A stretch of 64,000 nt of DNA from Nitrosopumilus sp. (GTDB lineage Archaea; Thermoproteota; Nitrososphaeria; Nitrososphaerales; Nitrosopumilaceae), in assembly GCA_965218695.1 (NCBI GenBank), contig OZ244651.1:1056001-1120000 (forward strand), given 5' to 3'. The notes beneath the pieces were generated by a model. The model searched no databases and was not told where the DNA came from. It saw only the letters and a program-made list of their open reading frames with translations. Position 1 is the stretch's first letter, and each line of letters starts with the position of its first letter. The position numbers were made by a program, and so were the translations under genes. Below, in pieces: positions 53,189 through 56,023 of the stretch.

Positions 53189-53316
53189 ATGTTATCGCTG
53201 TGGCAGGTTCTGTGTAATCTTCGGGAGGTAGAATCGGACTGGTCAACAAAAACGATTTAAGGCAGTCTATGAACAGACTCAATAGCATCCCTAAATTTTC
53301 AGATCCATACTACAAG

Positions 53317-53574
53317 CTACTCGTTATTTTCTGGATGTCTCACAGATCGCCTTCCAACGAAGAACAGCACGAACATCAGTCCCAACATGAAAACAAATAT
53401 TCCCATCATTGGAGCGATCGCGTACTCTGCAATATTCCTCTGTAAGACGTTTGTGCTTCCTGAATATAGTACGGCAAACATAATCAAAGACCAAAATAGA
53501 CCAACTAACAGAACAGATACGCTGATTCCCATTCCTAGCTTACTTTTGATTCCCACGATTCTTCCGTACTTCAT
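53317..53574 (-). CDS. Small two-TM membrane protein (transposon passenger)
   Basis: 85 aa with two hydrophobic helices. Confidence 0.65.
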   Translation of the reverse strand: MKYGRIVGIKSKLGMGISVSVLLVGLFWSLIMFAVLYSGSTNVLQRNIAEYAIAPMMGIFVFMLGLMFVLFFVGRRSVRHPENNE

Positions 53575-53683
53575 GTAGTAATAAGTTCTGTGATTGTGGG
53601 TTCTGTCGAGTTAATGAGAGCCAATCTAGAAATTTTATCGAGTTATAGAAACCTACTTTACAAAACTTAAACACTCTATAAAG

Positions 53684-53766
53684 TCCCGGGAGAGGGACTT
53701 GAACCCTCACATGCGGCGAGCATATTCATGTTTAAGATGAACGCCATACCATTAGGCTACCCCGGG
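53684..53766 (-). tRNA. tRNA-Leu(TAA)-like, type II, transposon-borne
   Basis: cccgggg tagcctaatggtatggcg ttcat-cttaaac-atgaa tatgc-tcgcc-gcatg t gaggg-ttcaagt-ccctc tcccggg a: all four arms plus a long variable arm. Confidence 0.85.
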
Positions 53767-53802
53767 TTAAAACGGTTAAATAGTCTATTAGTATAAGATT
53801 GT

Positions 53803-53849
53803 ATGGTTACGATTAAGGTGATGCGGCGAGCATACAGTAACCCTTTTTT
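53803..53849 (+). ncRNA. Candidate small RNA complementary to the adjacent tRNA
   Basis: TATA-like ttaaata at 53776, ggttac/gtaacc closing stem, T6 run at the 3' end, 14-nt and 9-nt complements to the tRNA. Confidence 0.4.
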
Positions 53850-53860
53850 CTCTCATATAA

Positions 53861-54985
53861 TTACACAAAGTTTCCTTTGTATAGACTCGCATTCTGAATC
53901 AACGTAATCCACTTGTTCCTACCATCCACTTCAATGAGTGAAGCTTCTGCCGGAGTCATGCCGTCAATCCCAGAGTGCTTCTTGGTAAAGTTATAGTAGA
54001 TTCTCATCCCATCCAAAACTGCCGTATCTATCTTCTTCAAACCTCTAAACACCTTCTCACGATCCCTGATTTCACCATTCAGACGCTCCATCTTGTTATT
54101 ATTGTCGCGATCCCTTTTCCCTGCAAGATGTATGTGCCTTACGTGGTTTGTTCCCTTACCAAAGACCTTCTTGCTTGACTTCATATAAGCCGGGAGTCCG
54201 TCAGTGATGAAATTCTTTGGAGCCTTCCCTGCCTGCCTTTTCGTCATGGATAGAAGAGAATCAGCGTTATGTTGGAACTTATTGTCTGCCAAATCTGAAG
54301 CCAACCAGTATCGCGTATCATCATCCATACTAGCAAACAGGTAGCATTGAGTACCGTTGATCTTTACCCACACTTCATCAGCACGAAACCAATCCCCCAC
54401 TCTTGGAACTACTCCATTGAGGTATTGTGCAGTCATACGGGAATAGTCTGAAACCCAATTGTATATCGTCTTGAATGAGACATCAATCCCCATCATCTCG
54501 TAGTGGTCGGCGATGTCCCTTACGCTCATTCCAGTATAGTACATTTGAAGTGCGCCAGTAATAATTAATTCATCAAACTGTCTCTTTTCGAACCCAAAGT
54601 TTGCGGTAAATTTCTTTTGACAGTCTTTACATCTGTACATTTGAACCCTACCTTTCTTGGTATTCCTCGTGCCTTCTTTCCTTATTCTGCCAGAGTCACA
54701 ATACTTGCAGACTGGTATCTTGGATCGTTCAATGATTCGGACTGGCTCATTTGCATAACACTTCTTCTGTTTAATGAGTTCGAGTGTAATGTGGATGTGT
54801 TTGCAGTCTGCGTTTCTGGTAGAATGGTCTGGACATGAACATATCAGACCATTTTTAGTTTCCTTGACCTCATAGAAATTTTCAGGATCGGTTTGAGATC
54901 GGATTTTGAATGTACCTATTCCTATTTGAGATCCGAATCCCGGCGATTCCATCATCTGTTTCGATCTCTCTTTTCTTTGGCTCAT
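53861..54985 (-). CDS. IS6-family DDE transposase with N-terminal SWIM Zn finger and Zn ribbon
   Basis: CSCPDH...CKH (SWIM), CKYC...CKDC, RADEVWVK, ITDGLPAY, NNKMERLNGEIRDR. Confidence 0.9.
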   Translation of the reverse strand: MSQRKERSKQMMESPGFGSQIGIGTFKIRSQTDPENFYEVKETKNGLICSCPDHSTRNADCKHIHITLELIKQKKCYANEPVRIIERSKIPVCKYCDSGRIRKEGTRNTKKGRVQMYRCKDCQKKFTANFGFEKRQFDELIITGALQMYYTGMSVRDIADHYEMMGIDVSFKTIYNWVSDYSRMTAQYLNGVVPRVGDWFRADEVWVKINGTQCYLFASMDDDTRYWLASDLADNKFQHNADSLLSMTKRQAGKAPKNFITDGLPAYMKSSKKVFGKGTNHVRHIHLAGKRDRDNNNKMERLNGEIRDREKVFRGLKKIDTAVLDGMRIYYNFTKKHSGIDGMTPAEASLIEVDGRNKWITLIQNASLYKGNFV

Positions 54986-55109
54986 GTTATAGGTTATATG
55001 TTAGGTTATATAAGTGTTAGGTTATTATTCAGGTTATCTTAAAGGTTATCATTCATTCCATTAGGTTAACCAATAGGTTATTATAGTGGTAGGGTTATAA
55101 AATAGGTTA
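54986..55109. promoter_or_regulatory. Divergent promoter region with an AGGTTA repeat array
   Basis: AGGTTA at 54991, 55003, 55019, 55031, 55043, 55063, 55075, 55104 and GGGTTA at 55092. Confidence 0.75.
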
Positions 55110-55285
55110 TGAGTGAACAAACTAATTTGGTTTTTGCCAATCAAAGCGGTTCTCTTCGAACTACCGTACCATCCCATATTATAAAACAGTTCAAGTTGAA
55201 GAATGGGGACAAGATGGAATGGGAATTGGTGGTAGAGAATAACGCTTTGAAGATTGTACTTAAACCAGTAAAGAAAGAATCTTGA
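55109..55285 (+). CDS. AbrB/MazE/SpoVT-family DNA-binding protein
   Basis: Manual translation (58 aa): MSEQTNLVFANQSGSLRTTVPSHIIKQFKLKNGDKMEWELVVENNALKIVLKPVKKES. Confidence 0.85.
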   Translation: MSEQTNLVFANQSGSLRTTVPSHIIKQFKLKNGDKMEWELVVENNALKIVLKPVKKES

Positions 55286-55421
55286 TTCATGGGGATTATA
55301 TACGTGGATTACATTAACACAAAGGATGCCATGTACGTACTTTTGGATGTTTTACCACTTAAGAATACATAGAATTGCAAAACGATAGGATTTTATGGAG
55401 ATATGAATAGACATCAACGAT

Positions 55422-55787
55422 ATGGGCATGATAAAGAAGATCGTGATTATCATAATAACAATCAATGTGATAGGAGCTGTCATATTCCTCGGTTTGTTGT
55501 TTGGAATGGAAGATAGATCCGATCAAATTACAGACGTGGGAACCAGTATCTTGAACAATAAGATAGCCATGTGGGAATTGCAGTTAGAAGAATGTGAGAC
55601 AATACAGACCCAGACAGAATTTACAGAATTCCAAACCGACACGCAAGAGCTTGAACGCTTGACTGATGCTGATGTTGGAGATCATCCCACAAGCATGACA
55701 CTTGAGATACTTGACAAGTTGAGTAAATCTCAAACAGACGTGTATTCATGCACAGCCTCCAAACAAGTACAATTTGGGATTCCATGA
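55422..55787 (+). CDS. Membrane-anchored hypothetical protein (transposon passenger)
   Basis: N-terminal TM, acidic helical domain with two Cys. Confidence 0.7.
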   Translation: MGMIKKIVIIIITINVIGAVIFLGLLFGMEDRSDQITDVGTSILNNKIAMWELQLEECETIQTQTEFTEFQTDTQELERLTDADVGDHPTSMTLEILDKLSKSQTDVYSCTASKQVQFGIP

Positions 55788-56023
55788 TTCCAAACTGCTA
55801 ATTTTTTGATTCAATCCAATAAAAAATAGGGATTGCGGTATAAAGTCGGGCTTGTGAAGTGATTTTGATAACTAGATTTTACCTCCCGAAGATTACACAG
55901 AACCCTGTGGCATGTGGTTTTTTGACTAGCCCGCACAAATGTACTGCATGCAAGTTGAGCCGTCTACTGCAAGGCAGCCGTGACAGAAACTTTTAATCAG
56001 GTAATGTGGCCCAGATTATTTGT

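Follow-up and report, generated by a model that had tools for sequence, protein, structure and literature searches.

Insertion sequences of the IS6 family, such as IS26, IS257 and archaeal members, are described as compact elements of about 0.7-1.8 kb with a single gene for a DDE transposase of the IS240/IS6 type, in some members with an N-terminal zinc finger, with ends that start with GG and contain a CTGT motif, and with an 8-bp target-site duplication (TSD) (PMC7986276). Passenger genes between the inverted repeats of an insertion sequence are known from 'tIS' elements, but ISDsp3 is the single IS6 member with a passenger gene named in that review, in the main text of which the word tRNA does not occur. 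In Thaumarchaeota, the same host phylum as here, IS-like transposons are described as typically carrying one or two genes (PMC6563490); the term IS6 occurs four times in that text, although this alone does not show in what context, and no cargo tRNA is mentioned in the parts consulted, which exclude the supplementary tables. By contrast, tRNA genes are known as cargo of phages, plasmids and integrative conjugative elements, often for codons that are rare in the host, but these carriers are tens of kb long and replicate or transfer themselves. Two further systems bear on tRNAs of the kind described below. The bldA tRNA-Leu(UAA) of Streptomyces is a dedicated decoder of a very rare UUA codon in a GC-richer genome and can gate the expression of TTA-containing genes; it is chromosomal and is the only UUA decoder of its host. 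Allo-tRNAs of Acidobacteria and other bacteria have long variable arms and anticodons that do not match their likely Ser or Leu identity, UAU being among the commonest, are found near toxin-antitoxin or transposon genes, and have been suggested to be missense suppressors or regulators (PMC5389517).

Here we analysed a window of 64,000 nt from Nitrosopumilus sp. (GCA_965218695.1, contig OZ244651.1, positions 1,056,001 to 1,120,000), in which a 2,699-bp element of the IS6 type carries a complete tRNA gene. An initial annotation made from the sequence alone had proposed an AT-rich unit that moved as one piece, bounded by a 25-bp perfect terminal inverted repeat (TIR) and an 8-bp TSD, and holding a SWIM-DDE transposase, a divergent AbrB-type gene, two membrane-protein genes and a tRNA-Leu(UAA). 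This observation is confirmed by our analysis, with the reservation that 'SWIM' itself gave no Pfam hit at E<=0.1. Both cargo-bearing insertion sequences and tRNAs on mobile elements are already known; what differs here is that the carrier of the tRNA is an IS-sized DDE transposon, of which we found no report in searches of a literature library. The features of the element are listed below, with coordinates given as positions in the window.

Features of the tRNA-bearing element, with the sequence evidence for each
Position	Strand	Feature	Observation
53198..53205	.	left copy of the 8-bp TSD (ctgtggca)	read directly
53206..53235	+	left TIR, starting GGTTCTGT	25 nt perfect, 30 nt at 97%; the same TIR type bounds related elements
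53317..53574	-	85-aa orphan ORF	two well-separated hydrophobic 19-mer peaks (17-35 and 56-74), plus a weaker one (6-24) overlapping the first; only sub-threshold family hits; no match in the related loci
53599..53620	+	internal TIR-like sequence, possibly an orphan end from earlier growth of the element	17 of 22 identical to the TIR type of related elements; a hint only
53683..53766	-	cargo tRNA gene, 84 nt, anticodon UAA, long variable arm, discriminator A, first pair C1-G72	tRNA-Leu(taa) by ARAGORN; Rfam RF00005 57.6 bits (gathering score 29); sequence parsed by eye; fits the class II cloverleaf
53767..53804	-	AT-rich spacer upstream of the tRNA, presumed archaeal promoter (inferred)	from sequence only; TATA-like stretches read by eye
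53805..53849	.	partner element: GGTTAC / GTAACC inverted repeat around a 26-nt loop	loop holds an exact 14-nt copy of the tRNA's variable arm (53821-53834); followed on the + strand by T6 (53844-53849); 0 of 500 shuffles reach 14 nt; fold not better than shuffles
53861..54985	-	transposase, 374 aa: CxCx9CxH motif, zinc ribbon, IS6-type DDE core	104 relatives in species genomes
54991..55110	+	seven AGGTTAT direct repeats between the divergent transposase and AbrB-type genes (presumed operator)	7 of the window's 11 matches lie here; 4.4 expected in the whole window
55109..55285	+	58-aa AbrB/SpoVT/MazE-fold gene, presumed regulator	Pfam PF04014, 1.5e-7; homologues in the same place in loci L032 and L068
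55422..55787	+	121-aa orphan ORF	one N-terminal hydrophobic segment; no family; Atlas best score 0.81, which is chance level
55875..55904	-	right TIR	
55905..55912	.	right copy of the TSD	

Several lines of evidence show that the element entered an intergenic site of the chromosome as a single unit. In addition to the TIR and the TSD, the closest relative genome (G002) has an empty site, in which the target occurs once, as CTGTAACA, between contiguous flanks that are 94% and 77% identical to those of the element. The element occurs in a single copy in a genome rated 99.99% complete. Its GC content is 0.40, compared with 0.528 for the chromosome. Since the genome is a metagenome-type assembly of nine contigs, a chimeric assembly, or a native tRNA that happens to lie between two unrelated inverted repeats, might be considered. 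However, contigs of 3,224 nt in two sequencing runs span both junctions with no differences, although these runs may be the source data, and the same architecture recurs in other genomes. We therefore regard an artefact as very unlikely.

The element shares with the IS6 family its transposase type, its ends, which start GGTTCTGTG with the GG and CTGT of the family, and the length of its target duplication. The transposase matches Pfam PF13610 (DDE_Tnp_IS240) at 2.1e-13 and 51 bits (cut-off 27), and its best NCBIfam family is IS6 (NF033587, 1.8e-33), which is covered over profile positions 1-202 of 202, but with 116 bits, just under the curated cut-off of 125. The CxCx9CxH motif was recognized by eye and is conserved in 10 out of 11 full-length homologues. 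The element differs from the family as described in its size and in its content of four ORFs and a tRNA, including a second conserved gene of the AbrB type, and is therefore a cargo-bearing variant and not a classical insertion sequence. The AGGTTAT motif is also repeated in the related locus L068, whose AbrB homologue is closest to that of the window, while a different repeat occurs in L032; this change of the repeat together with the AbrB homologue is in line with an operator function, which nevertheless remains an inference. The arrangement does not correspond to a type II toxin-antitoxin pair with a MazE-type antitoxin, as the AbrB/MazE-fold gene stands alone, divergent from the transposase gene, and the next ORF has no toxin family.

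Cargo is the rule rather than the exception in this transposase family in Nitrosopumilaceae. Of 54 loci, 22 could be delimited by TIR and TSD, at 1.9-4.6 kb, and 19 related elements show the same TIR type with perfect 8/8 TSDs. Thirteen out of 24 elements hold DNA methyltransferase-like or ParB/HNH-like genes, as named from our reading of the translated sequences and not from a family search. At least six elements bounded by TIR and TSD hold a tRNA gene, namely the one in the window and those at the related loci L028, L031, L074, L076 and L010, with anticodons UAA, CAG, UAU, ACG and AUC. On the other hand, 0 of 40 metagenome loci of the transposase family hold such a tRNA, though many of those contigs are short. 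It could be hypothesized that the tRNA gene serves the element as DNA or as an RNA structure rather than as a decoder, for instance as a landing site for integrases, since 39 of 68 integrated elements in Thaumarchaeota use tRNA genes as targets (PMC6563490), or as a processing or termination signal next to the transposase gene, since in 8 of 80 loci the tRNA always lies within about 150 nt of the transposase gene. However, the position and strand of the tRNA relative to the transposase gene vary (upstream on the same strand, downstream on the same strand and downstream on the opposite strand), the anticodon loops stay canonical, and no integrase or integrated element is seen at these tRNAs in the loci read, so that we consider this idea very doubtful.

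The tRNA of the window is not a pseudogene by score or structure. U8, A14, GG, U33 and the T-loop GTTC.A..C are invariant across 11 such tRNAs, 97.1% of cells are paired in the alignment, and 21 out of 25 pairs show double changes, although the set was chosen by ARAGORN and thus does not offer independent proof. Seven acceptor and five T-stem pairs fit all 11 aligned tRNAs, unlike the 8/4 or 9/3 arrangement of the bacterial allo-tRNAs, for which no upstream variable-arm partner is mentioned in the parts of the description that we consulted. The tRNA is also foreign, and it is not the native tRNA of the locus, which is an empty site in the closest relative. It had no match beyond 23-nt T-arm pieces in any of 40 relatives, its best hit in 400 family genomes is 72% identical, no exact 25-mer or 22-mer was found in the species genomes, viral contigs or metagenomes, and 52-57 of its 84 nt are identical to the host's long tRNAs. 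The host has, elsewhere, an intact native tRNA-Leu(UAA) (genome G000, contig C1:113885-114005) between tRNA-Thr and tRNA-Ile, a position that is syntenic in the relatives G049 and G015. It was missed by ARAGORN and Rfam and is called Leu(taa) only once two inferred introns are removed; on its own, that miss by standard tRNA finders would have suggested that the transposon carries the only UUA decoder. A discriminator A73 and a long variable arm are the identity marks of archaeal tRNA-Leu, a rule that comes from the Haloferax literature, and the cargo tRNA has both. However, its variable arm differs from the arm shared by the four native Leu tRNAs, and its first pair C1-G72 is unusual beside the host's tRNAs, so acceptance by LeuRS is uncertain.

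The initial annotation had further inferred that the tRNA supplies UUA decoding for AT-rich cargo in a GC-richer host, or that it is an effector in its own right. This interpretation is only partly supported: the tRNA does travel inside an IS6-type transposon, and related elements also carry tRNAs, but the evidence for UUA supply is weak. The host already has a UUA decoder of its own, unlike the situation of bldA, and the one on the transposon is an extra one. TTA codons do occur in the transposase gene (one) and in the 121-aa and 85-aa ORFs (one and two, respectively), as had been stated, but not in the AbrB-type gene. The element thus has only 4 TTA among 46 Leu codons, compared with 2.6% in the host, where UUA is the rarest leucine codon (Fisher p=0.03). 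Among five related tRNA-bearing elements, the cognate codon is clearly enriched over the flanks in only one (3-fold in L028), about 2-fold in a second (L027) and not in the other three. Moreover, related cargo tRNAs have discriminator G and anticodons for Ile, Arg, Asp and Glu, which does not fit simple codon supply.

Taken together, the sequence data establish a single-copy, recently inserted, cargo-bearing IS6-family transposon with a core of a zinc-finger DDE transposase gene and a divergently transcribed AbrB-type gene, and a cargo of two small orphan ORFs with hydrophobic segments and a self-contained tRNA cassette, which belongs to a wider set of mobile long-armed tRNA cassettes in this archaeal family. 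The remaining parts of our favored explanation are inferred: that the AbrB-type protein binds the repeats and controls both promoters, that the tRNA is transcribed from its own promoter and matured, that it is charged by LeuRS, that it adds an intron-free decoder for UUA, and that the upstream copy of the variable arm acts through base pairing, as a small partner RNA or a DNA site, to control this tRNA. Transposition through cointegrates, as in the IS6 family, would likewise be an inference. We assign this explanation a probability of roughly 0.7. Insertion sequences are thought of as carrying little beyond their transposase, and tRNA cargo is associated with viruses, plasmids and large islands. 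An IS-sized transposon that moves a working-looking tRNA gene would be the smallest known vehicle for changing a cell's decoding capacity, here in the ammonia-oxidizing archaea, an environmentally important group. The related cassettes also make directly testable whether archaea tolerate or exploit tRNAs whose anticodon does not match their charging identity, and whether the long variable arm is used as an address for RNA-based control.

It would be tempting to infer that the cargo tRNA is an effector rather than a helper. Long-armed tRNAs with anticodons UAU, ACG, AUC, UCU and UUC and discriminator G lie next to the same transposase family, and all keep canonical anticodon loops. Furthermore, 11 out of 57 long tRNAs examined, none of them an ordinary Ser or native Leu tRNA, carry an 8-15-nt copy or reverse complement of their own variable arm 39-58 nt upstream. 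The two sites co-vary between paralogues: in the cassettes at L047 and L222, five substitutions are mirrored in both sites, and the L222 arm, by our reading, no longer forms a good hairpin but keeps 12-nt complementarity. Up to three UAA cassettes with different arm/partner pairs sit in one genome, and in the complement type the element is followed by T4-T5. In this view, the tRNAs would be charged by an enzyme that ignores the anticodon (SerRS or LeuRS) and would read other codons or act in some way other than ordinary decoding, and the co-varying element would encode a specific partner RNA that holds each tRNA in check, forming an addiction-like or dosage-control pair that travels with the transposon. 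However, the A73 and UAA of the window's own tRNA are self-consistent for Leu, the partner hairpins, except one, fold no better than shuffled sequence (z scores -0.2 to -2.5), and the direct-copy type would need antisense transcription, for which only the window shows a T-run. In addition, the six cassettes placed upstream of the transposase gene, or of that same type (L027, L031, L028, L029, L180 and L208), lack the partner element. We therefore consider an effector role possible but unlikely. In a further reading, also unlikely on present evidence, Nitrosopumilaceae might harbour a class of mobile, 'addressable' tRNA cassettes, each a long-armed tRNA whose anticodon can be almost anything, paired with a private upstream element that matches or complements its variable arm, through which a small partner RNA or the DNA site itself would control the tRNA specifically. 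IS6-type transposons would be one of the vehicles, and if the G73 members are charged with serine, they would be natural, regulated missense decoders carried by transposons.

Alternatively, the tRNA might be a neutral hitch-hiker that was picked up when the element acquired flanking DNA, for example by using a new outer end, and that does nothing useful for element or host. Against this, which we regard as improbable, the tRNA keeps every universal tertiary nucleotide and all stems and does not resemble any tRNA gene of the genus from which it could have been picked up, and the tRNAs of L027 and L031 are identical at 86 of 87 positions while their flanks are 77% identical. In its favor, the element is single-copy here, cargo varies widely between related elements, transposases that are 96% identical occur with (L028) and without (L030) a tRNA, and the internal TIR-like sequence hints at stepwise growth of the element.

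The 2,699-bp element has a GC content of 40% in a chromosome of 52.8% GC, and it is bounded by inverted repeats of 30 nt at 97%, of which the first 25 nt are perfect and start GGTTCTGT, flanked in turn by the identical 8-mer ctgtggca. The host genome (G000; 2.63 Mb in nine contigs, rated 99.99% complete) belongs to an ammonia-oxidising archaeon of the Nitrosopumilaceae, and a housekeeping ORF beside the element has its closest relatives, at 93% and 86% amino-acid identity, in Nitrosopumilus sp. The closest relative genome, G002, matches the left flank at 92-94% and the first 74 nt of the right flank at 77%; in G002 these flanks are contiguous, with the target present once as CTGTAACA, and the genome has no match to the element, which indicates that the element inserted as one unit. 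It occurs only once in G000. In two public runs, 3,224-nt contigs cover the element and bridge both junctions without a difference. However, the four DNA data sets that contain the element belong to one study, and since the two runs may be the source of the assembly, they speak only against mis-joining. No contig joined across the element as an empty site, whereas loose ends within the two inverted repeats show other contigs sharing only the repeat tips. The observation made in the initial annotation, namely an IS6-type transposon that moved as one piece and carries a tRNA gene, therefore holds. Its interpretation, that the tRNA supplies UUA decoding for AT-rich cargo or is an effector in its own right, is only partly supported, as detailed below.

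Positions of the element and of the other features discussed (window coordinates unless a contig or locus is named)
Sequence	Position	Strand	Feature
G000 C1	1056001-1120000		window
window	50888-50962		tRNA-Lys
window	51422-52858		478-aa ORF with IS66-family transposase domain
window	52848-56071		interval covered by 3,224-nt contigs of two runs
window	52925-53188		87-aa ORF with SHOCT domain
window	53000-56200		interval searched for RNA families
window	53206-55904		element
window	53225		loose end of contigs sharing only the repeat tip
window	53683-53766	-	cargo tRNA, 84 nt, called Leu(UAA)
window	53805-53849		partner element
window	55885		loose end of contigs sharing only the repeat tip
window	56184-56247		possible small repeated palindromic element
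window	56184-56199 / 56229-56244		inverted repeats within it
window	56920-58011		housekeeping ORF
G000 C1	31984-32860		example of the repeat miscalled as tRNA-Tyr
G000 C1	113885-114005		native tRNA-Leu(UAA)
G000 C1	113911-113931		first inferred intron, 21 nt
G000 C1	113946-113960		second inferred intron, 15 nt
L005 (G000 contig C6)	1417-1660		possible miniature derivative
G002 C1 (L154/L156)	254878-256348		extra DNA between the empty site and tRNA-Asp
L176 (G208 C1)	5001-5088 (1537144-1537231)		nearest relative of the cargo tRNA

The 374-aa ORF on the minus strand encodes an IS6-type transposase, as PF13610 scores above its cut-off and the NCBIfam IS6 family is the best family over its whole profile, although at 116 bits against a cut-off of 125. 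It has an N-terminal zinc ribbon (NF050000), ahead of which lies a CxCx9CxH motif conserved in 10 of 11 full-length homologues; the Pfam SWIM model, in contrast to the SWIM-DDE label of the initial annotation, gave no hit. A 58-aa gene of the AbrB/MazE fold (PF04014) is transcribed divergently, and between the two genes lie 7 of the window's 11 AGGTTAT matches, all on one strand within 120 bp. L068, a related transposase locus whose small protein is the closest homologue, repeats the same heptamer five times in the same spacer, while the more distant L032 repeats a different motif. We read this as a regulator with its operator, which is an inference from sequence. The 85-aa and 121-aa ORFs have two and one clearly separated hydrophobic segments, respectively, and no relatives were found for either: Pfam and NCBIfam were searched for both, while an Atlas search, made only for the 121-aa ORF, gave scores at chance level. 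In searches for other copies of the element, only the transposase part matched relatives, and among all loci retrieved the only match outside the transposase gene was the AbrB region of L068.

ARAGORN calls the cargo tRNA as tRNA-Leu(UAA), and Rfam scores it at 57.6 bits, higher than the host's own Leu tRNAs (41-50 bits); the Rfam search found nothing but the two tRNAs at E<=1 in the interval given in the table. As read by eye, it has a 7-bp acceptor stem beginning C1-G72, a 3-bp D stem, the anticodon loop CUUAAAC, a variable arm with a 4-bp stem and 5-nt loop, a 5-bp T stem and discriminator A. It is not the host's native gene, as the four native-type Leu tRNAs share a different D loop and variable arm, and it is 52-57 of 84 nt identical to any long host tRNA. 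In D-loop length, acceptor sequence and arm stem it looks most like the genus's tRNA-Ser(CGA), but this is a resemblance only. There were no exact matches of a 25-mer from it in species genomes and viral contigs, or of a 22-mer in metagenome contigs, and a BLAST-level search of 400 family genomes gave 72% identity at best. This nearest relative, in locus L176 of genome G208, is a long-armed tRNA(UAU) with discriminator A, which sits in a 63% GC chromosome between an acylphosphatase-like ORF and ribosomal protein L2, has its own 15-nt upstream copy of its arm, and has no transposase within 5 kb.

At first, the cargo tRNA seemed to be the only UUA decoder of the host, since neither ARAGORN, with and without introns, nor Rfam found another tRNA(UAA) in the genome. 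We rejected this idea by synteny. Three relatives carry a native-type tRNA-Leu(UAA), which in two of them lies between tRNA-Ile(GAU) and tRNA-Thr(GGU), and the same interval in G000 aligns across a gene interrupted twice, by 21 nt at the D-loop/D-stem junction and by 15 nt at 37/38. With these two inferred introns removed, ARAGORN calls an 86-nt tRNA-Leu(UAA) with all stems intact, whereas the unprocessed gene is missed by both ARAGORN (with -i) and the Rfam tRNA model. Thus, the cargo tRNA is an extra, intron-free, foreign-type decoder by sequence. In this genome ARAGORN -i also reports, at some 24 places, a "tRNA-Tyr with a 777-783-nt intron" of identical length, which is evidently a repeated element of about 877 bp rather than tRNA genes.

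The transposase has 104 relatives in species genomes, nearly all in Nitrosopumilaceae records, of which 80 loci were kept (L numbers denote loci), and 40 relatives in metagenome contigs, whereas the six loci in viral contigs are weak partial matches only. Delimitation by terminal repeats was run on 54 of the 80 genome loci (L027-L080), and 22 elements could be delimited by the same kind of inverted repeat plus a target duplication (19 at 8/8 and three at 7/8), measuring 1,855 to 4,645 bp. Their shared layout is cargo, then a small divergent gene, then the transposase, and by our reading of the translated sequences a cluster of DNA-methyltransferase-like and ParB/HNH-like proteins is present in 13 of 24 elements. 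This clade is therefore made of cargo-bearing elements, while the IS6 review names a single member with a passenger gene (PMC7986276) and the Thaumarchaeota mobilome paper describes IS-like transposons as having 1-2 genes (PMC6563490). We found no published description of a tRNA carried by an element this small, although the supplementary tables of these two papers, which may list IS copies or passenger genes that bear on this claim, were not covered by the search.

In 8 of the 80 genome loci, a tRNA of 85-88 nt lies within about 150 nt of the transposase gene, with the anticodons CAG (L027 and L031), UAU (L028 and L029), UAA (L047), ACG (L074), AUC (L076) and UUC (L080). Two more lie a few kb away, in L058 (UAU) and L078 (UCU). 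The anticodons are as called by ARAGORN and were checked by eye only for part of the sequences. A covariance model built from these tRNAs found no further ones in 90 sources and none of full length in 41 more, and the 40 metagenome loci hold no long tRNA. The tRNA lies inside elements bounded by both inverted repeats and a target duplication in L028, L031, L074 and L076, and also in L010, a 2,361-bp element of the window's own genus with 26-nt inverted repeats and the duplication cattgtgt; L215 adds another tRNA beside a transposase. All of these tRNAs except the window's end in discriminator G, and they keep U33, a purine at 37 and the universal tertiary nucleotides. On the class II cloverleaf 97.1% of cells pair and 21 of 25 pairs show double changes, although the set was picked by a program that demands a cloverleaf.

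Several comparisons point to selection and modularity. The tRNAs of L027 and L031 are 86/87 identical, against 77% for the surrounding 1.3 kb, and the transposase genes of L028 and L030 are 96% identical, yet only L028 has the tRNA. L047 and L076 share 79%-identical flanks, but their tRNAs are 47/88 identical with 12 double-changed pairs, which looks like cassette replacement. The same kind of tRNA also occurs with no transposase within 1.5 kb, in L164/L176, L214, L222, L225, L228, L180 and L208. This survey covers the loci and five genomes reached and not the whole family.

An unexpected partner element accompanies some of these tRNAs. The window's variable arm sequence recurs exactly (14 nt) 54 nt upstream of the tRNA. 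Among 57 distinct tRNAs, a set that keeps only ARAGORN calls of 82-90 nt with 120 nt of upstream sequence and merges duplicates, 11 have such a match of 8-15 nt, always 39-58 nt upstream, as a direct copy in four (the window, L164, L214 and L074) and as a reverse complement in seven (L047, L222, L225, L078, L076, L080 and L228). The other 46, which include all Ser(GCU/UGA/CGA) and all native-type Leu tRNAs, have at most 7 nt, at scattered places. Shuffled upstream sequence reached the observed length in 0 to 10 of 500 trials for the seven clear cases tested, but in 56 to 500 of 500 for native tRNAs. Paralogues L047 and L222 are 91% identical over 188 nt, and five substitutions in the upstream element are mirrored by the complementary substitutions in the variable region; these fall on every second position of the 13-nt element (positions 3, 5, 7, 9 and 11), a pattern for which we have no explanation. 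Likewise, L076 and L225 share the stem and the AT-rich stretch around the element, while the element itself follows each tRNA's arm. The six cassettes that sit upstream of a transposase, or are of that same type, lack the element. In the window the + strand reads GGTTAC, a 26-nt loop holding the complement of the arm, GTAACC, C, and then T6, and in the complement type the same layout faces the tRNA and ends in T4-T5. However, apart from L076, the folds are not better than those of shuffled sequences, no C/D or H/ACA boxes were seen by eye around the partner element, and no RNA data set was listed as containing the transposon. We therefore regard the co-variation as shown, like the insertion of the transposon as a unit and the presence of the native gene, whereas the mechanism behind it, which could be a partner RNA, a leader pairing or a DNA site, and the expression, processing and charging of the tRNA are at most inferred, the last from identity rules for archaeal LeuRS and SerRS.

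As to what the tRNA might be for, UUA is the host's rarest Leu codon, accounting for 1,283 of 49,792 Leu codons (2.6%) in ORFs of 250 aa or more, and the element's four ORFs hold 4 TTA among 46 Leu codons (odds ratio 3.6, p=0.03). In five related elements the cognate codon of the cargo tRNA is not consistently enriched over the flanks, being about 3-fold enriched in one, 2-fold in one and not in three. Helping the element's own genes, as the initial annotation suggested, is thus a weak reason. A general supplement for a scarce, splicing-dependent tRNA remains plausible for the window's A73/UAA tRNA. For the G73 tRNAs with Ile, Arg, Asp and Glu anticodons, the closest described parallel is the bacterial allo-tRNAs, which have a different stem arrangement (PMC5389517).

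A GC-rich (0.60-0.66) ORF with an IS66-family transposase domain (7.5e-29) lies just upstream of the element, between tRNA-Lys and the element, and the tRNA-Lys to tRNA-Asp interval looks like a hotspot for mobile DNA. G002, the relative with the empty site, has about 1.47 kb of extra DNA between that site and tRNA-Asp which the window lacks. The 87-aa ORF with a SHOCT domain (8.5e-10) ends 10 nt before the target site and is 92% conserved at the DNA level in G002. On the other side, a stretch of about 62 nt with internal inverted repeats has four 98-100% identical copies, a fifth at 95% and a weak sixth at 74% elsewhere on contig C1, and may be a small repeated palindromic element. Finally, a 244-bp stretch in locus L005 of the same genome is bounded by 25-nt inverted repeats of the same GGTTCTGT type, and is a possible miniature, transposase-less derivative of the family.
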